DNA of 11,711 nucleotides. Source: a virus. Positions within the stretch are counted from its first letter, which is position 1, and each line of letters begins with the position of its first letter. The notes below the pieces were generated by a model. The model had not been told where the DNA came from, ran no database searches, and saw only the letters and a list, made by a program, of their open reading frames with translations. Shown here piece after piece: positions 230-11,711 of this stretch. The position numbers and the translations under genes are program-made. The stretch is taken from the UHGV virus genome UHGV-0118820. One strand, written 5' to 3'.

Positions 230-3200
230 ATGACTCATCAAACACACACCATTGCTGAATCCAATAACTTTATCGTTCTTGATAAGTACATCAAAGCTGA
301 GCCAACAGGCGACAGCTACCAGAGCGAATCGGACCTGGAACGAGAACTGATTCAGGACCTGCGGAATCAGGGCTATGAATTTATATCCGTAAAATCACAG
401 TCGGCGATGCTGGCCAATGTTCGGGAACAGCTTCAGAACCTCAATGGTGTGGTGTTTAATGACAGCGAGTGGCGGCGTTTCACGGAGCAGTATCTGGATA
501 ACCCGAGCGATGGCATTCTGGATAAGACCCGTAAAATCCATATCGACTATATTTGCGACTTTATTTTTGATGACGAGCGTCTTGAGAACATCTATTTGAT
601 AGATAAAAAGAATCTCATGCGCAATAAGGTGCAGATTATCCAGCAGTTTGAACAGACGGGTTCTCATGCTAACCGTTATGACGTCACGATCCTGGTTAAT
701 GGCTTACCGCTGGTGCAAATCGAACTGAAAAAACGCGGCGTGGCGATTCGTGAGGCTTTCAACCAGATACATCGTTACAGTAAAGAGAGTTTTAACAGCG
801 AAAATTCCCTGTTTAAGTATCTGCAACTGTTTGTCATTTCTAACGGCACCGATACCCGTTATTTTGCCAACACGACAAAGCGCGATAAAAACAGTTTTGA
901 CTTCACCATGAATTGGGCGAAATCAGACAACACGCTGATTAAAGACCTCAAAGATTTTACCGCTACCTTTTTCCAGAAACATACTCTGCTTAATGTTCTG
1001 GTGAACTACAGCGTTTTTGACAGCAGTCAGACGCTACTGGTGATGCGACCGTACCAGATTGCTGCCACCGAGCGCATTCTGTGGAAAATTAAGAGTTCCT
1101 TTACAGCGAAGAACTGGTCAAAACCGGAAAGCGGTGGGTATATCTGGCACACTACCGGTTCTGGTAAAACCCTCACCAGCTTTAAAGCCGCGCGTCTGGC
1201 AACAGAGCTGGACTTTATTGATAAAGTCTTCTTCGTGGTCGACAGGAAAGACCTCGATTACCAGACCATGAAGGAATATCAGCGTTTTTCGCCAGACAGC
1301 GTCAACGGCTCGGAAAATACCGCAGGCCTTAAACGAAATCTGGATAAGGACGATAACAAAATTATCGTCACTACTATTCAGAAACTCAATAACCTGATGA
1401 AAGCAGAAAGCGACCTGCCTGTATACAATCAGCAAGTGGTGTTTATATTTGATGAATGCCACCGCAGCCAGTTTGGAGAAGCGCAGAAAAACCTGAAGAA
1501 GAAATTCAAACGCTATTATCAGTTTGGTTTTACCGGTACCCCTATTTTCCCGGAAAACGCCTTAGGCTCAGAAACGACCGCCAGCGTATTTGGTCGTGAA
1601 TTGCATTCGTATGTAATTACCGATGCGATTCGTGATGAAAAAGTGCTCAAATTCAAGGTGGACTACAACGATGTGCGGCCACAGTTTAAGTCTTTAGAGA
1701 CAGAAACTGACGAGAAAAAACTAAGTGCGGCTGAAAATCAGCAGGCGTTTCTTCATCCCATGCGTATTCAGGAAATCACGCAATATATTCTGAATAATTT
1801 CCGCCAGAAAACTCACCGTACCTTCCCTGGCTCAAAAGGTTTTAATGCTATGTTGGCAGTGAGCAGCGTGGATGCCGCGAAAGCCTATTACGCGACGTTT
1901 AAACGGTTACAAGAGGAAGCAGCTAATAAATCGGCTACCTATAAACCGCTGCGTGTTGCGACAATCTTCTCCTTTGCTGCCAATGAAGAACAAAATGCCA
2001 TTGGTGAAATTTCCGATGAAACTTTTGATACCAGCGCAATGGACAGCAGTGCTAAAGAGTTTCTTGACGCTGCAATTCGTGAGTATAACAGCTATTTTAA
2101 AACTAACTTCAGCACCGACAGTAACGGTTTTCAGAACTACTATCGTGATTTAGCCCAACGGGTTAAAAATCAGGATATCGATCTGTTAATTGTCGTGGGG
2201 ATGTTTTTAACTGGCTTCGATGCTCCAACATTGAACACGCTATTCGTCGATAAAAACTTGCGTTTTCACGGCCTGATGCAGGCATTTTCCCGCACCAACC
2301 GTATTTATGATGCAACTAAAACCTTCGGTAATATCGTCACTTTCCGGGATCTGGAACGCTCAACTATTGATGCCATAACGCTGTTTGGTGACAAAAACAC
2401 CAAAAATGTGGTTTTAGAAAAGAGTTATGCAGAGTATATGGAAGGCTTTACTGATGCTGCCACTGGTGAAGCTAAGCGCGGCTTTATGGCAGTAGTTTCA
2501 GAACTGGAACAACGGTTCCCTGACCCTGCCAGTATTGAAAGTGAAAAAGAGAAGAAAGACTTCGTTAAACTGTTTGGTGAATACCTGCGTGCCGAGAACA
2601 TCCTGCAAAACTATGATGAATTTGCCACGCTGAAAGCCCTGCAACAAATCGATCTTAGCGATCCTGTTGCGGTAGAAAAATTCAAAGCAGAACATTATGT
2701 GGATGATGAAAAGCTCGCTGAATTGCAAACAATTCGTCTCCCTGCTGATCGCAAGATTCAGGATTATCGTTCTGCCTATAACGATATTCGCGACTGGCAG
2801 CGCCGTGAGAAAGAAGCTGAGAAAAAAGAGAAATCAACCACTGACTGGGATGACGTAGTTTTTGAGGTCGATTTGCTGAAGTCTCAGGAAATAAACCTGG
2901 ATTATATCCTTGGACTGATTTTCGAACACAACAGACAAAATAAAGGCAAGGGCGAAATGATCGAAGAGGTCAAACGCTTAATTCGTTCAAGCCTAGGGAA
3001 CCGTGCTAAAGAGGGCCTGGTGGTCGATTTTATTCAGCAAACGAACCTGGATGATTTACCAGACAAAGCCAGTATCATTGAGGCATTCTTTACGTTTGCT
3101 CAACGCGAACAGCAACGTGAAGCAGAAGCATTGATAAAAGAAGAAAATCTCAATGAAGATGCAGCAAAACGCTATATTCGCACGTCTTTAAAACGCGAAT

Positions 3201-3346
3201 ACGCCACCGAAAATGGCACAGAATTAAACGAAACATTACCAAAACTTAGTCCGTTAAATCCGCAATATAAAACGAAAAAACAGGCAGTTTTCCAGAAAAT
3301 CGTCTCGTTTATTGAGAAGTTTAAAGACGTAGGCGGAAAAATATAG
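230..3346 (+). CDS. hsdR: Type I restriction enzyme R subunit (HsdR), intact, 1038 aa; EcoR124-like (type IC) by recollection
   Basis: Single uninterrupted 3117-nt ORF with SD AAGGA. Contains helicase motif I (WHTTGSGKT), DEAD-box-like motif II (FIFDECH), an N-terminal PD-(D/E)xK nuclease region (VQIELKK) and motif VI (QAFSRTNR). Length and N-terminal sequence match my recollection of EcoR124I HsdR. Confidence 0.95.
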
Positions 3347-3362
3347 CCCAATTCGTGTTTTT

Positions 3363-3391
3363 CTTGCGGGTTCTTAATTAAACCCGCAAGA
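3363..3391. other. Perfect 10-bp inverted repeat (CTTGCGGGTT / AACCCGCAAG) with 8-nt loop, 17 nt downstream of hsdR stop
   Basis: Read directly from sequence. A T-run precedes the stem on the plus strand and no U-run follows it on either strand, so it is not a canonical intrinsic terminator. Confidence 0.5.
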
Positions 3392-3429
3392 GACCGTGGG
3401 GTTCCAAATGGCTAATATACTCCCCTTAC

Positions 3430-3513
3430 CTATGCGCGACAATGCTGCCAAAAGTGATAGAGAACAGCCAGAAATAGATCGCGGCCATAATGATTTTGAA
3501 TGCCGTGTTCATA
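3430..3513 (-). CDS. Candidate small hydrophobic peptide (27 aa, MNTAFKIIMAADLFLAVLYHFWQHCRA)
   Basis: ATG at 3513-3511 preceded by AGGAG (3526-3522) with 8-nt spacer; TAG stop at 3432-3430. Below the size cutoff of the ORF track. Predicted single membrane-spanning segment. No homolog recalled. Confidence 0.25.
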   Translation of the reverse strand, partial: YEHGIQNHYGRDLFLAVLYHFWQHCRA

Positions 3514-3540
3514 TTTTCAGCTCCTGTGATTGATTGGATA

Positions 3541-3570
3541 CATGCCGCGCCTTGCGGCATGTTTTTATTT
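3541..3570 (+). terminator. Rho-independent terminator (plus strand), probable hsdR transcript end
   Basis: GC-rich hairpin CATGCCGC-gcctt-GCGGCATG (3541-3561) followed by TTTTTATTTT. Confidence 0.6.
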
Positions 3571-3581
3571 TCCCTTTCTCT

Positions 3582-3621
3582 GTTTTAAAAATCAATATTT
3601 ATTAGAGCAATTATTGCTGAT
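3582..3621. repeat. Copy A of ~40-bp imperfect direct repeat (GTTTTAAAAAT-N6-TTATTAGAGCAAT-TATTGCTGAT), overlapping the stop codon of the HAD gene
   Basis: Matches 5723..5763 by eye: identical 11-mer and identical 13-mer, similar 3' tail. The 13-mer core also occurs inverted at 5687..5699. Confidence 0.55.
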
Positions 3622-4117
3622 GAAGAAGCGCGTTTTCATACTCCCTGACCATTAACGTAAGCACGCCGTGCCTCCTGAAAACACGCGCCACTTCAATCTT
3701 ATCTTCCAGCGCGAACGCAATTTTACTTAGACCAATTTTCTTAAGGAGATCAATCTTTGCTGGACCGTCATTTCTGTCATCGGTGGCGGGACGCATAGAT
3801 AGCAAAGGCTCTGCCCCATTTGTTACGTGCTTACGCAACCAGGCTCGTGTTTTATCCCTGGCTATCTCACAGCGCCCGGTTACAAACCAGAGCGTGTAAA
3901 TGCTGGACAACTGGCGCACCATATCAATAACTGGAGTGATGGGAGCATCAGTGTCACAGGCAAGGTTAAACTCGTTCCAGTGCTCTGTTAATGCACCGTT
4001 GCCAGGCGGTGGAAGTAAATGCAGCCTGTCTTCCGTTGCCTCTGATATCGTCCCATCAATATCTACTATGACGATATACGGACGTTCCTGGTGTGCGTGT
4101 TTATTGAAAATACTCAA
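3611..4117 (-). CDS. HAD-superfamily phosphatase, resembling the 3'-phosphatase domain of T4 polynucleotide kinase-phosphatase (stand-alone, no kinase domain)
   Basis: 168-aa ORF with TTG start preceded by GAGGAGG. HAD motif I IVDIDGT near the N-terminus; C-terminal LEDKIEVARVFRRHGV resembles my recollection of the T4 Pnkp tail IDDRTQVVEMWRRIGV. No P-loop. Confidence 0.65.
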   Translation of the reverse strand: MSIFNKHAHQERPYIVIVDIDGTISEATEDRLHLLPPPGNGALTEHWNEFNLACDTDAPITPVIDMVRQLSSIYTLWFVTGRCEIARDKTRAWLRKHVTNGAEPLLSMRPATDDRNDGPAKIDLLKKIGLSKIAFALEDKIEVARVFRRHGVLTLMVREYENALLHQQ

Positions 4118-4136
4118 ATGCCCTCCTCATTGGACG

Positions 4137-4170
4137 AAAAAAATGCTGGTGGGAGCACTCCACCAGCATT
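4137..4170 (-). terminator. Rho-independent terminator for the 420-aa gene (minus strand), directly upstream of the HAD gene RBS
   Basis: 11-bp stem AATGCTGGTGG / CCACCAGCATT (4142-4152 / 4160-4170) with 7-nt loop. On the minus strand it is followed by a U-run (plus-strand A-run ending at 4143). Confidence 0.55.
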
Positions 4171-4189
4171 AAAAGTGACACTGTAACTA

Positions 4190-5452
4190 TCAGCGAACGT
4201 AAATAGTGCCGCCGTTCTCTTTTTCCCATGCATCGCTACGTGCATAGCAAACATCGAGAAGTCTTCTTGCCGCAGTTTCCTCTAAACCCAATTCGACAAC
4301 CAACTGCTCATGACGGCGGGTAACCACATCAAACAGGGTATGCAGCCCTTTAGTTGCCAGATCATCAATGAATTCCGGTTCGAACGGCAGCTCTGCATCT
4401 GCCAACATAACCTCTTGCGCCCACTCAACTCGACGGACCAGTTCCGGGCGGCGGCTTTCCATCTCTTTACAGATCAATTCATGGAAGAACTCTACCCAAC
4501 CTTCCGGCTGGAACTCGCGGAAAATTGCCAACGGCTGGAAGTTTGGCATCAACCATTCGTTGATTCGGATATCAATGGCATAGCCCATGTCGCAGCAGAA
4601 CTGATAAGCAAAGTCCAGCTTAGAAACGATATAAGGACGCTCGTTATTGAACTCTTTAGGCGATGAGATCCCATAAGCCAGGAGGCGCGGGAAGAAGGAG
4701 ATTTGCCCTAACGTCGGATGAAGTTTGCTTGCAGGGAAACGTCGCTCAGTAATGCCATACATTTCCTTCTTGAGCGTCGCAAATTTGGCATTCTCATTAA
4801 CCAGCGCGGTAACCTCTGCTTTTTTATTAGCAAATGCCACGCGCGCCTCGCTTGCATCTTTAATAGTTTTTTTGAGCTGTTGGTTAAGGTCGGCGACCTG
4901 CTTACGCAGTTCCTGTCGCTCGCTTTTAGCTTTGTTATAGCGTTTCTCAAGGTTAAAAGGATCAAGTTTCATGATCTCTTTATATTGAGATTTTAGCGTT
5001 GAAATCTGTGAGTTCCGCAGTTCAACCATCGCGGTCATTTCATTGAGTTTTGTTTCCAGCTCAATGCTTATACGTTCGGCATTATCAGCACGCTGGTTGG
5101 CGTCATGCGTCGCATCGTCGATCGCGTCCTGTTGCTGGCGTTTCAAATGTTCAATTTGCAGCTGAAGCTCTTCAATTTCTTTACCCTTCAGACCGAGATC
5201 CAACTGCATATTTTCAGCTGCATCTACCAGGGAGTTATGGCTATCAGCTTCTGCGTTATAAACATCAATAAGCTGTGCGTGAAGCATCTCCGCTGACTGA
5301 ACCGCATTATCAAAAAAACGTGCTGTGAGGTCATCACAACTAACGCGGCGTTGCGCGGCCCGGATGTTCTGGATAATGGCCGGGATACCGGCATTCAGGA
5401 CGTCAGGGATAGATACATTTTCGATTGATTGGTTTTGTGCTGAAGTGCTCAT
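4190..5452 (-). CDS. Hypothetical protein, 420 aa: N-terminal ~230 aa predicted coiled coil, C-terminal ~190 aa globular domain of unknown family
   Basis: Long uninterrupted ORF. Start ATG 5452-5450 is 1 nt downstream of the stop of the 72-aa ORF. No P-loop or nuclease motif seen. Heptad-like Q/E/K/L-rich N-terminal half. Confidence 0.8.
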   Translation of the reverse strand: MSTSAQNQSIENVSIPDVLNAGIPAIIQNIRAAQRRVSCDDLTARFFDNAVQSAEMLHAQLIDVYNAEADSHNSLVDAAENMQLDLGLKGKEIEELQLQIEHLKRQQQDAIDDATHDANQRADNAERISIELETKLNEMTAMVELRNSQISTLKSQYKEIMKLDPFNLEKRYNKAKSERQELRKQVADLNQQLKKTIKDASEARVAFANKKAEVTALVNENAKFATLKKEMYGITERRFPASKLHPTLGQISFFPRLLAYGISSPKEFNNERPYIVSKLDFAYQFCCDMGYAIDIRINEWLMPNFQPLAIFREFQPEGWVEFFHELICKEMESRRPELVRRVEWAQEVMLADAELPFEPEFIDDLATKGLHTLFDVVTRRHEQLVVELGLEETAARRLLDVCYARSDAWEKENGGTIYVR

Positions 5453-5453
5453 T

Positions 5454-5672
5454 TCAAAGTTCCGTATTAGCTTGTGCTTCGGTCATTTTTCCTAAGTATG
5501 AAGGAGGAAGGACTACGCAATTTGTATCCAGTCCCTCACCTATGGCAGCCTGTAAAATTCTGGCTAAGGTGAGTCTCTTGTTGCGATACCTGGTGATGAC
5601 ATGCCTGATACCGCCGGTCGGCGTAACAAAGGCGATCAGCCAGTAGTGATATTTCCGTCGGAATGGCCACAT
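5454..5672 (-). CDS. Hypothetical small protein (72 aa), translationally coupled to the 420-aa gene
   Basis: ATG 5672-5670 preceded by AAGGTG. Stop TGA 5456-5454, then 1 nt, then the ATG of the downstream gene. No family recognised. Confidence 0.5.
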   Translation of the reverse strand: MWPFRRKYHYWLIAFVTPTGGIRHVITRYRNKRLTLARILQAAIGEGLDTNCVVLPPSYLGKMTEAQANTEL

Positions 5673-5686
5673 AGTGCACCTTATGG

Positions 5687-5752
5687 ATTGCTCTAATAAA
5701 AAACGTGATGAGTGTACATCACGTTTTAAAAATATGGAATTATTAGAGCAAT
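5687..5752. repeat. Perfect 13-bp inverted repeat (ATTGCTCTAATAA at 5687-5699 / TTATTAGAGCAAT at 5740-5752) bracketing a terminator hairpin
   Basis: Read directly from sequence. The arms are the same 13-mer that forms the core of the direct repeat at 3599-3611. Confidence 0.6.
5698..5727 (-). terminator. Bidirectional Rho-independent terminator ending the minus-strand operon 8768..5754
   Basis: Stem CGTGATG / CATCACG (5704-5710 / 5717-5723) with 6-nt loop, flanked by A6 on the left and T4 on the right. Reads as hairpin plus U6 on the minus strand. Confidence 0.55.
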
Positions 5753-5763
5753 ATTATTCTGAT
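5723..5763. repeat. Copy B of ~40-bp imperfect direct repeat, overlapping the stop codon of the glycosyltransferase-like gene
   Basis: See copy A (3582..3621). Both copies lie directly 3' of the stop codon of a minus-strand gene. Confidence 0.55.
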
Positions 5764-6455
5764 TCTTGCTCAAAAAACGAGCTGGTAAGGGGAAGCCAAT
5801 CCTCTGACACTTCGCGAGGCCGCGGTTTGCCGTGGAAAAAGATTATTCGGCAGTCTTTTGGTAATGCCCCATTCCCCCTGGAGTAACGCGCGCTCGCATA
5901 TTTTGAACCAGGTTCCACAACATCGGCCTTGTAACTTACAAACCATCCTGGATACAGATCCTGAAATGCTGGTGTATCATCGCCCATAACCTTTCGTAAG
6001 AACCCCTGGTCACCCCAGCACTCAGTAGTGACACAACGAGAAATCCAACCTTCCGGATCTTGCCAGAATGAACTCCAGATATGCGCTTTAACACTATTTG
6101 GTATCCACAGGGCACCGCTGCCACGATATTGTGGATGGTAAAAATCCCTAAGCATGGTGAAGCTGGTTGGTGGATGCTCTAGGATTGGGCGTATATCACC
6201 GGCAATAACCGTGTCCAAATCCAGATAGAACAGATCATCGGTTATATCCGGTCGGAACAACTCGATTTTCGCCCACCAGCCACGGCACTTTTGCCACTGG
6301 TTGATCAATGGGACAACTTTGACGCCAGGTACATGTAAACGCTTCAGGTCTGTCAGGCAAATAATTTCATAGCCTTTTGGCAGTTGATTAACCAGCCACT
6401 GCACATCGGAAGCGTTATAGTCACCACCAGAGCGAAAAACTAAAGCAATCTTCAT
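5754..6455 (-). CDS. Putative GT-A fold glycosyltransferase (DxD-type), 233 aa
   Basis: [13 protein letters not shown] matches the DxD nucleotide-sugar/metal motif context. C-terminal FHGKPRP resembles the H-x-G-x-KPW motif of GT8/GT32-like enzymes. ATG overlaps the stop of the upstream phosphatase ORF as ATGA. Confidence 0.55.
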
Positions 6456-7107
6456 GCTGCACCATCACCTTTCACTTTCATCAATGTCAGGTTTCCGCAA
6501 AATACGGCACCAGTGTCGATATACTGCTGATTCCAGAATGTCTTCGGGCTTTTCACCGGAGTGTGACCAAAGATAAAACGATCTGCGCCCGAAATTTCGC
6601 CACCAATATCATCCATCGAATCACTGATACGCTCGCGCGCCCAGACAACGTTGAAAAGCGGCACCTCCTTACCGAATTGGTATTCATTATCCGGATAGTC
6701 GGCATGGGCTATAACGATAGTTTCTTGCCCGGTGTTCAACTCAATGATATAGGGCAGACGTCTTACCAGCTCCACCAGCGCCCTGGCTAATATTTCCTGA
6801 TCAGTGTCCAGCATGAAGAACCATTGTCCGCCATTCATTAGCCAGTTATTCACGTTATCATCAGCCGCTCATGGTTCCCCATCACTGCCCTGAACCAGGG
6901 CATCTGCAATAGTTCCAGACATTCGACATTTTCAGTACCGCGATCGATAAGGTCGCCGACCGATATCAGTAAATCCTGCGCCGGGTCAAAATCCACACGA
7001 TGGAGTTCGGACATCAGTCTGGTGTAGCAACCATGCAGATCACCAACAACCCAGACATTCCTGTATTTGGTACCGTCGATACGGTGATAAATTGTGGGTG
7101 CCATCAT
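6452..7107 (-). pseudogene. Lambda-type Ser/Thr protein phosphatase (calcineurin-like metallophosphoesterase), interrupted by a frameshift
   Basis: Two adjacent ORFs (7107..6850 and 6853..6452) in different frames. Together they carry GDLHGC, GDLIDRG, GNHE, then WLMNGG and [13 protein letters not shown], closely matching my recollection of lambda phosphatase. The frame breaks right after GNHERLMIT, where about 7 residues expected before NVNNW are missing. Confidence 0.75.
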
Positions 7108-7730
7108 GTATTCTTCAGCCATTCTTTAAGAGTCATCTGCGGAATACCTCCCATTTTCCCGCATGAAACAACGTCAATCCGTTCACGCGCAGACTGGAAT
7201 AACAAAGGCAGGTGACTTAGATTTTTTGGCGTGCCGCCGGAGTGAACGCGTGGTTCTTGTGTAGCGTCAACGCCCACCAGGGCGACATGTTTGAATCCGA
7301 TATGGAAAGCCAGGTTCAGAGCGCCATATGCACTATTGCCGCTGGCAATTTCATTCTCATCTTCGCAAAGTCCGAAATGTGCGGACCAGCGCCACGCCCA
7401 CCACTCGGGAGAATTCGTATTTTTTGGCTCCATGCCACGTTCAGCCACACGACGGAAGCACAGAACGCCGTCTCTGACTTCACGTTCTTTAACATCGGGT
7501 AGTGCCATGCAATAACAAACACCACGGCGACGGCGGCCACGACCAACGCGCCGCATATTGTCTGGCGATGGATCAAGGGTGAAAAAATAAGAAGCGCGGT
7601 TCAGCCAGTCGATGGCCCCATTGACCGCTATAATCGGCACTCCGCGCGGCGCAACAAAGTTTGCGGCGCTTGGGCCACTGCCGACGATAATAACGCGATC
7701 ACTGCCTCTAAATTTATTCTTGGGAAACAT
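7104..7730 (-). CDS. GT42 sialyltransferase-like / DUF115 (MptE-like) Rossmann-fold protein, paralog B (208 aa)
   Basis: N-terminal [10 protein letters not shown] and IIAVNG, later [12 protein letters not shown] and VALVGVD. This pattern resembles Cst-II-type sialyltransferases (IIAGNGPSL, FRCNQ) from memory. Stop overlaps the phosphatase start as ATGA. Start preceded by AGGAG. Confidence 0.55.
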
Positions 7731-8257
7731 TGAATTGCACTGCTCCTACTTGCATTCAAAATATGTAAATCTGCGTGTTTTTTGCGGGTATCCAGGAACT
7801 GCTGTTGCCATTTTGAAATAGACACCTGCGTTGGATTCCGTAGGGCTTGAGGGTGCGCGCCATGCCAATGAAGGCCGTTTTGCAGAGAACAGTCATAGCC
7901 GACTAATACCACTACTTCAGCCCCTGATTCAGCAGCCAGACTGATAGCCTGCGCGCCGCTATTTACCCCTTCCGCCGGTCCACAATATCGCCTGTACTCC
8001 AACGAAAATGATTTCGCCGCCGCCAGGTTGGCTGTCACTTTGCGGAATCTCCCTCCCGGTATGGTGGATCCGTATTGCTTCCACCATGACAAATCACCGG
8101 CGTATAAGGCATAAATGTCATCGAACATCTGCCAGGAATTGTTAACCGCGATGATTGAACAGCCAGTTTTTTCTATAGCAGCACAGTCCTCACGAGTGAG
8201 TGACGGACCGCTACCGACACAAAAAACAGTCCTAGTCGCCCTGGGTGGTATGTTCAT
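7628..8257 (-). CDS. GT42 sialyltransferase-like / DUF115 (MptE-like) Rossmann-fold protein, paralog A (start placed at MNIPP)
   Basis: VFCVGSGPSL, IIAVNNS, NSGAQAISLA and VVVLVGYD parallel the motifs of paralog B. The ORF could begin 11 codons earlier at 8290. Its 3' end overlaps the start of paralog B by about 100 nt. Confidence 0.55.
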   Translation of the reverse strand: MNIPPRATRTVFCVGSGPSLTREDCAAIEKTGCSIIAVNNSWQMFDDIYALYAGDLSWWKQYGSTIPGGRFRKVTANLAAAKSFSLEYRRYCGPAEGVNSGAQAISLAAESGAEVVVLVGYDCSLQNGLHWHGAHPQALRNPTQVSISKWQQQFLDTRKKHADLHILNASRSSAIQCFPRINLEAVIALLSSAVAQAPQTLLRRAECRL

Positions 8258-8429
8258 TCTCAGCTGCAAATTCAGCCTCCAGGCGAGCATTCATTTCAGC
8301 GATTACCGGGTCCACTACAGCATCTGCTTCCTGTTCATTACGCGGCATGATCGATGCCAGCGATTCATAATTAGCCTTGAATGACACGATTATTCTCCCG
8401 ATGTTAATGTGCGCTATATCAAAGAGCAC
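8232..8429 (-). CDS. Possible small acidic protein (at most 65 aa; GTG-initiated in the ORF track)
   Basis: ORF-track entry only. No convincing RBS. Overlaps the start of paralog A. AT-rich upstream region. Confidence 0.2.
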   Translation of the reverse strand: MLFDIAHINIGRIIVSFKANYESLASIMPRNEQEADAVVDPVIAEMNARLEAEFAAENEHTTQGD

Positions 8430-8453
8430 ATATGCACTAATTAATTTATTATT

Positions 8454-8768
8454 TTAAGCAGCATACAACCACTTATCGCCGTTCAATACATGCTCAATAG
8501 CCTCACCCTTTTTAAGGCTTATGTATTCCAGGATGGCGGTAATCGCTTGTTCTGCACCATACGCAAGAACGACGTAGTAACCTTCCTCTCTAAGCCTGCG
8601 CATCCAGGCGATCTGCTCTTTCGTCGGGGCTTTACCATTTGGTTCTTTAAGCTCAATTCGCATGCCGTGATAAATACCGCATGCTTTATCGAGACTCATG
8701 TCCGGATAACCTTTTTTCTGCCCTTCAGCCTTCATTTTCCCGGCGGTTGCTTTTGAACGTTTCCCTCT
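8454..8768 (-). pseudogene. VRR-NUC domain (PD-(D/E)xK) nuclease gene, 5' end truncated by IS insertion
   Basis: GYPDMSL and IELKEPNGKAPTKEQIAWMRRLREEGYYVV match the VRR-NUC core. The N-terminal part of the domain is absent. The ORF-track N-terminus ([24 protein letters not shown], 8769-8840) is encoded by the IS inverted repeat, so it is a chimeric artefact. Confidence 0.7.
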
Positions 8769-8839
8769 GAAGTGGTTTACTGAATTTGGCCACCTGAACA
8801 GAGGTGATATGCTCACCTCAGAACAACACAGGTGCTCCA

Positions 8840-9102
8840 ATGAAAAAAAGAAATTTCAGCGCAGAGTTTAAACGCGAATCCGCTCAACTGGTTGTTGACC
8901 AGAACTACACGGTGGCAGATGCCGCCAAAGCTATGGATGTTGGCCTTTCCACAATGACAAGATGGGTCAAACAACTGCGTGATGAGCGTCAGGGCAAAAC
9001 ACCAAAAGCCTCTCCGATAACACCAGAACAAATCGAAATACGTGAGCTGAGGAAAAAGCTACAACGCATTGAAATGGAGAATGAAATATTAAAAAAGGCT
9101 AC
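8840..9102 (+). pseudogene. IS3-family OrfA (HTH transposase N-terminal protein), 3' end interrupted by IS30
   Basis: [16 protein letters not shown]...[12 protein letters not shown], then the reading frame runs into the IS30 terminal repeat. The ORF-track start at 8804 is an upstream extension; ATG at 8840 is the likely true start. Confidence 0.8.
9091..9097 (+). promoter_or_regulatory. A-AAA-AAG programmed -1 frameshift heptamer of the IS3-family element
   Basis: AAAAAAG in the X-XXY-YYZ register of the orfA frame (codons tta-aaa-aag). Known frameshift signal of IS911-type elements. IS30 is inserted 5 nt downstream. Confidence 0.6.
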
Positions 9103-10323
9103 TGTAGATTCAATCTGTCAATGCAACACCCCTTTCAATTATCTCTTTCGGTGTTTTGAACTTCAGTGTCTTTCTCGGTCTGTTGTTTAGCTGAGCAGCA
9201 ACCAGATCTAGTTCATGTTGAGTATATTGGGCAAGACATGTCTTTTTAGGAAAGTACTGCCGAATTAGCCCATTTGTGTTCTCATTTGTTCCCCGCTGCC
9301 AAGGACTCTGAGGATCGCAGAAGTAAACTTTAACGCCGGTGCTGACAGTAAATTCTAGATGTCTGGCCAGTTCCATTCCTCTGTCCCATGTCAGTGATTT
9401 TCTGAGTTCTGACGGTAAACTCAGGAATTTGTCGGTAAGAGCCTGATTTACTGAGACAGAATCTTTGCCCCTGAGTCTAAGGATGATCGTATAACGTGAT
9501 TTTCGGTCTACAAGTGTGGCTATATGAGAGTTTTTTGTACCTGAGACTAAATCGCCCTCCCAATGCCCCAGAGAGCGTCTGTTATCGATATTTCGGGAAC
9601 GTTCGTGAATTGGTGTTCCGTTCACTATGTTAATCGTACCTCTTTCGCCTTTGCGGGTATGACGCCTGCCATGGCGAAGGCTATGCGACCGTCGCAGATG
9701 CTGTATATTCAGGTGGTGTAGCGCTTCACGGCTACGAAAGTACAGCGTTTTATAAATTGTCTCAGGTGATATTCGCAGCGTTTTTTGACGTGGTTTTGTT
9801 CGCCTTAACCATCCTGATATTTGCTCTGGAGACCATTTCATCTCCAGCTTTTCCAGAACAAGCTTTCGCAATGGTAAATTTTGATCCAGTAAGCACGGTT
9901 TTGGCCTTTTCGCCATTCTGTTGGCTCGGTTATTAGCATCAACAGCTTTGTAATAGCGTCTGCCCCGATTACGCTGAACTTCACGTGAGATCGTCGAAGG
10001 ACTGCGATTCAGCGCAGTAGCTATCGCACGAATGCTCATTTTGGCTGACAAACCAGCTCGTATCTCCTCGCGCTCAGACAGTGTCAGGTGAGCTACAGCC
10101 CGCTTACGCTCATGGGGTTTTATGCCGCCAGTATCCCTTAACATAGTGAAGATCGTTCCGGGTTTTGAACCCAGGATATTCGCTATTTCACTGAAGCCTG
10201 TTCCGTTCTTCCATAGTTCAAAAACAGAGGCTTTTTCCTCTGCTGTAAATGTTCGTCTCATTCAAAAAACCTCCGCAACCCCATGTTTTCACATAACTGT
10301 TGCGTTGACCAATTGAATCTACA
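9103..10323 (-). mobile_element. IS30, complete (1221 bp) with 26-bp terminal inverted repeats
   Basis: Terminal repeats TGTAGATTCAATCTGTCAATGCAACA (9103-9128) and TGTTGCGTTGACCAATTGAATCTACA (10298-10323). Length and ends match my recollection of IS30. Confidence 0.9.
9110..10261 (-). CDS. insI: IS30 transposase (383 aa)
   Basis: Intact 383-aa ORF with an N-terminal HTH region and a DDE integrase core (HWEGDLV). Size is as expected for the IS30 transposase. Confidence 0.92.
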
Positions 10324-10325
10324 GC

Positions 10326-11211
10326 GGCGTACTTCGCAAAGCTGTCCGACTGAGGTACGCCTTTATCCGTGACAACTCCTGTTGCTGGCCTGTTCGCCTG
10401 CTCTGTCGGGTGCTGGATGTTCATCCCAGTGGTTTTTACGCCTGGCTTCAGCAGCCGCATTCACAACGCCATCAGGCAGACCTGAGACTGACAGGACAGA
10501 TTAAACAGTTCTGGCTGGAATCGGGATGCGTCTATGGTTATCGCAAAATCCATCTGGATCTGCGTGACAGCGGGCAACAGTGCGGAGTAAACAGAGTCTG
10601 GAGACTGATGAAACGTGTCGGAATAAAGGCTCAGGTCGGATACCGAAGCCCGCGGGCACGTAAAGGCGAGGCCAGTATCGTGTCGCCCAACAGGCTTCAG
10701 CGACAGTTCAATCCGGATGCTCCGGATGAGCGTTGGGTAACGGATATAACCTACATCAGGACCCACGAAGGCTGGCTGTATCTTGCCGTGGTTGTTGATC
10801 TGTTCTCACGCAAAATTATCGGCTGGTCCATGCAATCCCGGATGACAAAGGACATTGTCCTGAACGCACTGCTGATGGCTGTATGGCGGCGTAATCCCCA
10901 AAAACAGGTGCTGGTTCATTCGGATCAGGGCAGTCAATGAATGGCAGTCGTTCCTGAAATCACACGGCCTGGAGGGCAGCATGAGCCGTCGCGGTAACTG
11001 CCATGATAATGCGGTTGCAGAAAGCTTTTTCCAGTTGTTGAAACGCGAACGGATAAAGAAAAAGATCTACGGAACGCGGGAAGAAGCCCGCAGCGATATT
11101 TTTGATTACATCGAAATGTTTTATAACAGTAAGCGTCGGCATGGTTCCAGCGATCAGATGTCACCGACAGAATATGAAAACCAGTATTATCAACGGCTCG
11201 GAAGTGTCTAA
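10326..11211 (+). pseudogene. IS3-family OrfB (DDE transposase/integrase), frameshifted
   Basis: The frame is open from 10326 (…CRVLDVHPSGFYAW…) through WVTDITYI and LVHSDQGSQ to a stop at 10938-10940. The remaining C-terminus (SMSRRGNCHDNAVAESFF…) continues in another frame to TAA 11209-11211. A 1-nt-class indel lies near 10935-10945. Confidence 0.75.
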
Positions 11212-11496
11212 ATTATCCGTGGCGATTCATTGTTAACCAGCTAAGAAACTCAGCTTTCTGGTTCACCAGCTAAAACTGCGGTTCACGTTCCCTGATTCTT
11301 TGCTCGGGGAGGGGAGAGCAGTCCGAGTCACAGGCTGTTTCCTCCTCACCTTTTTCAACCAGGTCAACAACGGCTATTTTAGAGGATAATCACGTTGGGG
11401 GCGTTTGAACTCAGTCATCGTCACGTTCTCCGGATTTAAGTCAGGAACATGTCAACGATATTCAGGGCGGGTTACTTTCTTACTAAGTGAAAAATC

Positions 11497-11553
11497 ATGT
11501 TAACTATAAAATATATTCTATTTGTTTGTGTTGTTAATTCGATTTTTTCTACC
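11497..11553 (+). pseudogene. Possible 5' fragment of a gene for a signal-peptide-bearing protein, truncated by IS1
   Basis: ATG at 11497 opens MLTIKYILFVCVVNSIFST (charged n-region plus hydrophobic core), and the frame runs straight into the IS1 terminal repeat at 11554. Weak RBS. Only 19 native codons are visible. Confidence 0.25.
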
Positions 11554-11711
11554 GGTAATGCTGCCAACTTACTGATTTAGTGTATGATGGTGATTTTAAG
11601 GTGCTTGCGTGGCTTCCATTTCCATCAGATGTCCTTCCTGCTCCGCTACTGAAGGCGTGGTGCGTAACGGCAAAAGCACTGCCGGACATCAGCGCTATCT
11701 CTGCTCTCACT
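11554..11711 (+). mobile_element. IS1 family element, left end (continues beyond window); sequence variant of canonical IS1
   Basis: GGTAATGCTGCCAACTTACTGATTTAGTGTATGATGG matches the IS1 terminal inverted repeat from memory, with a few substitutions. Followed by the start of insA. Confidence 0.85.
11609..11711 (+). CDS. insA: IS1 InsA, N-terminal part (truncated by window end)
   Basis: GTG start, then [33 protein letters not shown]: the zinc-finger-like N-terminus of IS1 InsA. Confidence 0.8.

Follow-up and report, generated by a model that had tools for sequence, protein, structure and literature searches.

A 3′ remnant of the phage P1 nuclease gene pmgM at an IS911-type end in P1-derived DNA adjoining a type I restriction gene

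The locus described here, which we call the window, is the whole 11,711-nt stretch analyzed from the viral genome UHGV-0118820. When it was compared with phage P1 (NC_005856) by blastn, a single collinear alignment of 5.35 kb was obtained between positions 3422..8767 of the window and positions 84482..79115 of P1, with 97.95% identity. A per-gene comparison with P1 placed the following genes in this fragment, all on the minus strand: pap (3611..4117), pmgS (4190..5452), pmgR (5454..5672), pmgQ (5754..6455), a frameshifted and disrupted ppp (6452..7122), pmgP (7104..7730), pmgO (7628..8290), pmgN (8232..8387), and the 3′ part of pmgM, hereafter ‘pmgM. The first intact gene downstream of the pmgM remnant is pmgN, which has 6 mismatches in 156 nt relative to P1 and corresponds to PHROG 2350. 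The P1 fragment is abutted by hsdR (230..3346, plus strand), which encodes a type I restriction subunit of the EcoR124 family (PADLOC REase_I, E = 0); its close relatives are annotated in RefSeq as HsdR or as EcoR124-family subunit R, and a relative carries the Pfam domain EcoR124_C.

Several features of the genes located downstream of pmgM were also observed. The ppp gene (lambda-like Ser/Thr phosphatase, metallophosphoesterase) carries a 22-bp deletion at approximately position 6865, corresponding to P1 81018-81039, that splits it into two ORFs (6850..7122 and 6452..6853). This deletion was present in 0 of 655 matching E. coli records, and it is either private to the source of the window or a sequencing error. 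PmgO and PmgP showed sub-threshold Pfam matches to MptE-like, and their relatives are labelled as sialyltransferase or motility-associated glycosyltransferase in RefSeq and PHROGs. Together with PmgQ, for which PHROG assigns a glycosyltransferase, these similarities make the retained P1 cassette look like a sugar-modification module. The PADLOC scan gave no defence-system match for the remnant, pmgN, pmgO, pmgP, pmgQ, pmgR or pap; a match of PmgS to LmuB (E about 1e-4) was disregarded as a weak, coiled-coil-type similarity.

The remnant of pmgM occupies positions 8454..8767 on the minus strand, starting with the last 2 nt of codon 89 and continuing through codons 90-192 to the stop codon. Given that full-length P1 pmgM is annotated as a gene of 579 bp encoding 192 aa, 88 codons and the first base of codon 89 are missing. 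The remaining DNA differs from P1 79115-79428 by 2 mismatches in 314 nt (312/314 identical), it includes no stop codon or frameshift, and its two substitutions leave the protein unchanged; accordingly, a tblastn search with the 104 native residues against phage records showed 100% identity with P1 PmgM (103/103 aa). In the same way, residues 25-128 of the ORF aligned to positions 89-192 of the 192-position profile of PHROG 2363 (E = 1.7e-66). Near-identity to P1 and synteny with pmgN-pap thus identify the sequence as pmgM, but a full-length CDS (~192 aa) is absent. RefSeq (PGAP) labels the remnant as “VRR-NUC domain-containing protein” or “PDDEXK family nuclease”, with the remark “incomplete; missing N-terminus”, so its pseudogene status is already on record. 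In P1, pmgM is dispensable for lytic growth and plaque formation, according to a CRISPRi essentiality screen (PMC10695390).

In the six-frame ORF list, the remnant appears within a 128-aa ORF of the minus strand (8454..8840) that starts with TTG. The homology with P1 ends exactly at 8767, which is the IS boundary; the IS terminus TGAAGTGGTTTACTGAATTTGGCC starts at 8768, from where the DNA reads rightwards as TGAAGTGGTTTACTGAATTTGGCCACC..., and over its first 60 bases this DNA shows no difference from the left end of what is annotated in E. coli K-12 as IS911A. In the ORF, codons 1-24 (8769..8840) consist purely of IS sequence, and codon 25 (AGA, R) spans the junction. The whole IS-derived head, of 24 codons and 1 nt (8768..8840, minus strand), is antisense to the IS911 left inverted repeat and the orfA leader, matches the left end of K-12 IS911A, and is not part of a gene. 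A previous examination, based on the letters of the window and their translations (the sequence-only reading), had proposed that a VRR-NUC gene lost its 5′ part at an IS911-like element, and that the resulting ORF is a chimera whose first 24 codons begin within the left inverted repeat of the IS. The coordinates, the P1 alignment and the identity with K-12 IS911A all agree with this description. The chimeric head, however, shows no sign of being a fusion gene and is best seen as an ORF-calling artefact, since a run of 24 random codons lacks a stop in about 1 of 3 cases and no Shine-Dalgarno-like element is present in the 18 nt preceding the TTG (TGAAATTTCTTTTTTTCA). The 24 IS codons and the TTG start are therefore a by-product of six-frame ORF calling. 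An in-frame internal ATG is located at residue 36 of the ORF (M36, MKAEG...), with a weak GGGAAA just 5′ of it, and low-level translation may occur from the TTG or from M36.

Regarding the expression of the genes in the P1 fragment, the sequence-only reading had stated that the promoter and the genes upstream of the operon were removed, and that the block would now be either silent or driven from an outward-reading IS promoter. The first part holds for the pmgL-pmgM unit, which in the P1 annotation has its own promoters (LPpmgL, late; P1pmgL and P2pmgL, sigma-70) and a C1 operator (O26): pmgL and all of these elements are lost from the window. It does not hold from pmgN onwards. The annotation of P1 places PpmgN within the last 33 bp of pmgM, followed by Oppp, serving pmgN and the genes that follow, and a second promoter, PpmgR, with operators OpmgRa/b, precedes pmgR-pmgS. 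In the window, PpmgN, a sigma-70 promoter (TTGAAC, 15 nt, TATGCT) that was predicted by the P1 annotators and that, with its 15-nt spacer, is not called by a stricter consensus scan, lies inside the 3′ end of the remnant (8460..8486, minus strand) and is identical to P1 79396-79422 in 27/27 positions. Oppp, the C1-repressor operator formerly called Op83 (8431..8447, plus strand), is identical to P1 79435-79451 in 16/17 positions, and PpmgR with the C1 operators OpmgRa and OpmgRb (5687..5752, minus strand) is 100% identical to P1. A consensus promoter scan of both strands from 8150 to 9000 detected no promoter-like site, including any reading outwards in the IS end. The proposal of a silent or IS-driven block thus fails: because PpmgN/Oppp and PpmgR/OpmgRa/b are retained, the downstream genes should be transcribable from P1 promoters, and judging from the P1 annotation, pmgN-pmgQ and pmgR-pmgS are most likely transcribed from them. 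On the same grounds, these promoters would be derepressed wherever the P1 C1 repressor is not present. The promoters P1pmgT and P2pmgT and the C1 operator OpmgT are also retained, at 3567..3611 (minus strand) with 1-2 mismatches; since pmgT has been replaced by the hsd cassette, these promoters now face the 3′ end of hsdR, in antisense.

To estimate how common the junction between the IS and ‘pmgM is, complete E. coli records were searched with 80-nt probes centred on the junction, and PLSDB with a 160-nt probe. Of the complete E. coli records, 50 carry the junction of the window, as do 52 PLSDB records, among them one E. fergusonii plasmid. A further 42 complete E. coli records have the same breakpoint, reading ...CACTTCA followed by GAGGGAAACG, joined instead to the opposite, orfB-proximal IS911-type end, TGAAGTGGTCAACAAAAACTGGCC. 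This persistence, together with an ORF that is open for 128 codons and a remnant devoid of disabling mutations, would agree with the idea that the chimeric ORF is expressed through an outward IS911 promoter or by read-through, and that the truncated fragment has acquired a new role, for example, as a dominant-negative or DNA-binding protein. We consider this very unlikely. The scan described above revealed no promoter-like site on either strand of 8150-9000, and no ribosome-binding site precedes the TTG; moreover, the IS911 promoter pIRL reads inwards, away from the remnant. The encoded fragment would also lack the first helix (α1) and the first strand (β1) of the modelled nuclease fold (see below), and the persistence of the junction can be explained by hitch-hiking with the retained neighbouring genes and their promoter.

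The region bordering the remnant is a mosaic of insertion sequences. It starts with an IS911-type left end of 335 bp (8768..9102, plus strand), composed of IRL and the 5′ part of orfA, which is 91.7% identical to K-12 IS911A (270206-270540). There, orfA is cut by an IS30 of 1221 bp (9103..10323, minus strand) with an intact transposase of 383 aa (ORF 9110..10261) and inverted repeats of 26-27 bp, 99.8% identical to K-12 IS30A. Next to it, at 10324..11229 (plus strand), another element of the IS3 family is represented by its 3′ part, which shows 97% identity with a copy of this family in NCTC11129. This segment gave no match with K-12 IS911A-1, and it is not the continuation of IS911. Its orfB is broken into ORFs 10410..10940 and 10981..11211, and the related copy in plasmid pDX6A is annotated as frameshifted; positions 10373..11711 are 99% identical to pDX6A, where the element has the left end TGAATCGCCACAGG... 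and adjoins hokD. Beyond this element there are ~322 bp of unrelated DNA (11230-11552), followed by IS1. The IS1-type end (11553..11711) was the source of thousands of partial matches in E. coli genomes.

The position of IS30 within this mosaic deserves a separate comment. It is inserted after the 335th base of IS911, just past the A-AAA-AAG slippery motif, as in the K-12 arrangement IS911A::IS30A (270541..271761), but in inverted orientation, and the 2-bp target duplication is absent (AC vs GC). The identity of the site suggests either that this position is a hot spot for IS30 or that recombination between IS30 copies took place.

One account of the boundary would be the insertion of a single IS911 into a locus that was otherwise whole, with the 5′ half of pmgM located on the far side of the element; the sequence-only reading had also spoken of an insertion. 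It is true that the breakpoint coincides exactly with the IS terminus, and that the left inverted repeat and the likeness to orfA were confirmed; nevertheless, a matching right inverted repeat, a contiguous orfA/orfB and a 3-bp duplication were all absent. The left flank ends in ...CCCTC (CTC) and the right flank starts with TTGTT... (TTG), the search for inverted repeats did not pair 8768... with ...11229, and the right end ...CCGTGGCGATTCA of the right-hand element does not pair with the IS911 IRL. Each end comes from a different member of the IS3 family, with IS30 joining them, and the DNA flanking the element on the right is unrelated; in pDX6A this DNA is found beside an IS3-family element next to hokD. 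The missing duplication, the unpaired ends and the mixture of IS parts indicate that the 5′ half of pmgM is not across the element, which makes a simple insertion extremely unlikely. We conclude that deletion or recombination mediated by IS elements within this mosaic produced the boundary of pmgM.

The junction with the opposite IS911 end was located at position 40/41 of locus L006 and at 7040/7041 of locus L009, and its counterpart in the window is 8760..8775. The IS911 of this lineage is in addition interrupted by IS30 and by a group II intron, an arrangement also present in K-12 CP4-6. The plasmids of this type carry a 2.2-kb stretch (L009 3828..6046) that is 98.8% identical to K-12 271737..273955 (IS30 end, IS911A-1, eyeA, ykfC) and that includes a reverse transcriptase gene of the group II intron type. 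As this intron lies between two fragments of IS911, its insertion site appears to be the orfB of IS911. If two IS copies had merely recombined, the terminal repeat next to the flank would be expected to stay the same; by this reasoning, it is conceivable that a transposase acted at the end of a resident IS. The paired opposite ends could then record an end-targeted insertion or the in situ replacement of an IS911 copy, and the pmgM stub would naturally mark the place of such a reaction. In a second, weaker reading, the stub would have been kept because it supplies PpmgN: it could drive a C1-free, constitutive P1 glycosyltransferase/phosphatase cassette that travels with type I restriction. We regard this set of ideas as speculative and assign it a low probability.

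To define what the truncation means for the protein, we examined the nuclease domain. The catalytic motif D...(D/E)xK is retained: D47 (8700-8702), E63 (8652-8654) and K65 (8646-8648) of the ORF correspond to D111 (in GYPD), E127 and K129 (in ELK) of PmgM, which are invariant in a family alignment of 56 sequences. The Pfam domain VRR_NUC (PF08774) matched the ORF only at profile positions 47-115 of 116, with 22.9 bits, under the gathering cut-off of 23.8 bits; full-length P1 PmgM also scored under the cut-off (21.2 bits). Since both scores are below the threshold, the membership of PmgM in the VRR-NUC family is based on its match to the solved VRR-NUC protein in PDB 4QBL, which aligns to residues 77-180 of PmgM (E = 3.5e-17), and on its fold. 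An AlphaFold model of PmgM, with the 56-member alignment as input, had a mean pLDDT of 90.8 and superimposed best on 4QBL (target-normalised TM-score, 0.83), with 4QBN, 4QBO and FAN1 as the next matches. In this model, helix α1 (60-75) and strand β1 (83-85) precede the breakpoint, and after it come a helix (94-102), two strands (112-114 and 124-129), a helix (138-149), a strand (153-158) and a last helix (160-171). The invariant positions of the alignment are E61, H62, Q65, P87, G89, G90, R92, A102, E103, G104, D111, E127, K129, Q140, L147, G151 and Y170, and the first five of these are upstream of or at the breakpoint (codon 89).

A complete α-β-β-β-α-β core is therefore lacking in the remnant, because helix α1, with its conserved Glu, and strand β1 are upstream of the breakpoint. 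These data bear out the view of the sequence-only reading that the gene keeps its PD and ExK core but has lost the N-terminal part of the VRR-NUC domain, given that the Pfam match starts at position 47 and the PHROG 2363 match at position 89; the comparison with 4QBL and the 56-sequence alignment, which are independent of these two, point to the same loss. No published nuclease assay of PmgM was found in the literature. Judging from the alignment and the modelled structure, a protein without α1 (E61, H62, Q65) and β1 would almost certainly be inactive, as it would be unable to fold into an active nuclease.

We also considered the length of the PmgM relatives. Among 103 homologues, those with 42-77% identity are 182-204 residues long and extend over 93-100% of PmgM, and most relatives have ~185-200 aa. 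The shortest complete homologues (~112-126 aa) start at the invariant E61-H62, which precedes the breakpoint by 29 residues, and none of the 103 starts at the MKAEG methionine or near residue 100. The possibility that the gene is intact, encoding ~93 aa from the MKAEG methionine with the IS merely upstream (the sequence-only reading had contemplated homologues of ~95 aa), has in its favour the in-frame ATG with its weak GGGAAA and the location of the three motif residues D, E and K downstream of it, yet its probability is close to negligible given that P1 PmgM has 192 aa, that identity with P1 DNA continues for 98 nt upstream of this ATG up to the IS end, that E61, H62, Q65, P87 and G89 are absent, that 4QBL aligns from residue 77, and that no homologue has such a start.

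To obtain evidence about the source of the fragment, we searched for the uninterrupted locus with a 6745-nt query, consisting of window positions 2622..8767 extended with the 5′ part of P1 pmgM, pmgL and the promoter region. The locus was found uninterrupted in at least 40 E. coli records, the best 40 of which showed 100% coverage and 98.0-98.6% identity; most of them are plasmids of 90-100 kb. One of these, NZ_CP122882.1 (93.6 kb), has the order doc-phd-hsdM-hsdS-hsdR-pap-pmgS-pmgQ-ppp-pmgP-pmgN-pmgM-pmgL, in which pmgM is intact (579 bp). Beyond pmgL there are seven genes matching P1 26, 25, 7, 24, 6, 5 and dbn, and then a replicative helicase (P1 ban); the P1 gene names were given by synteny with the P1 annotation. 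NZ_CP122882.1 is thus a P1-like phage-plasmid with a type I restriction-modification cassette in the pmgT-humD region, which is one of the eight variable regions described for P1-like phage-plasmids (PMC9603915). The existence of such intact hsdMSR-bearing versions with the same gene order supports the idea that the window is a fragment of a P1-like phage-plasmid. The junction-bearing plasmids that were checked type as IncFIB/IncHI1B, unlike P1-like elements, whose replicons are IncY/p0111 (PMC9603915). The association between P1 DNA and type I hsd genes is itself old knowledge: the GenBank record of P1 indicates that P1 84263-84482 is 96% identical to the DNA downstream of the EcoDXXI hsd locus, and that P1 84399-84482 is 98% identical to the DNA downstream of R124/3 hsdR. 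The P1 homology of the window stops exactly at P1 84482.

Taken together, these results make it highly probable that the ORF is a pmgM pseudogene at an IS911 end, lying in a piece of a P1-like phage-plasmid whose downstream genes have their own P1 promoters. The source would have been a P1-like phage-plasmid in which a type I hsdMSR cassette separates phd/doc from pap. Part of this element, from hsd and pap to ‘pmgM, would have moved into a non-P1 plasmid backbone, with the IS end as the boundary on the pmgM side, and the 88 codons of pmgM, pmgL, the pmgL promoters, O26 and the rest of P1 upstream of the boundary would have been lost. An IS911-type terminus would thereby have been fused inside codon 89, leaving the 3′ 103 codons of a PD-(D/E)xK nuclease gene. 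The 3′ end of this remnant would still bring PpmgN and Oppp to pmgN and the genes that follow.

In practical terms, the ORF should be annotated as a pmgM pseudogene and not as a chimeric gene; it is an ordinary case of an IS-generated truncation, and mostly an annotation matter. The 5.35-kb segment is to be read as a fragment of a P1-like phage-plasmid that probably carried a type I restriction system into IncFIB/IncHI1B-type plasmids, a further instance in which IS elements mediate the passage of genes from phage-plasmids to plasmids. It would be wrong to take the downstream P1 genes for silent, as their C1-controlled promoters are intact and, as far as the P1 annotation indicates, would be unrepressed without P1.

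Among the closest known systems is P1 PmgM itself (P1_gp086, YP_006552.1; formerly orf83b), with which the window shares residues 90-192, the neighbouring genes pmgN-pap, and the promoter and operator at the 3′ end. The window copy differs from it in the absence of codons 1-88, the first base of codon 89, pmgL, LPpmgL, P1pmgL, P2pmgL and operator O26, and in being joined to an IS911 end. With respect to the VRR-NUC proteins (PF08774; 4QBL, 4QBN, 4QBO; the nuclease domain of FAN1), the fold and the D...ExK motif are both present in full-length PmgM; in the remnant the motif persists, but the first helix and first strand are gone and the Pfam score is below the cut-off. The IS911 left end and the position of IS30 are common to the window and E. 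coli K-12 CP4-6 IS911A::IS30A (insN-insI1-insO), whereas in the window IS30 is inverted, and beyond it there is another IS3-family element and not the rest of IS911. Finally, the P1-like phage-plasmids with hsdMSR between phd/doc and pap, such as NZ_CP122882.1, have the same hsdR-pap junction and gene order as the window, with 98-99% identity; these elements are complete and their pmgM is intact, whereas the window is a fragment that ends at the IS.
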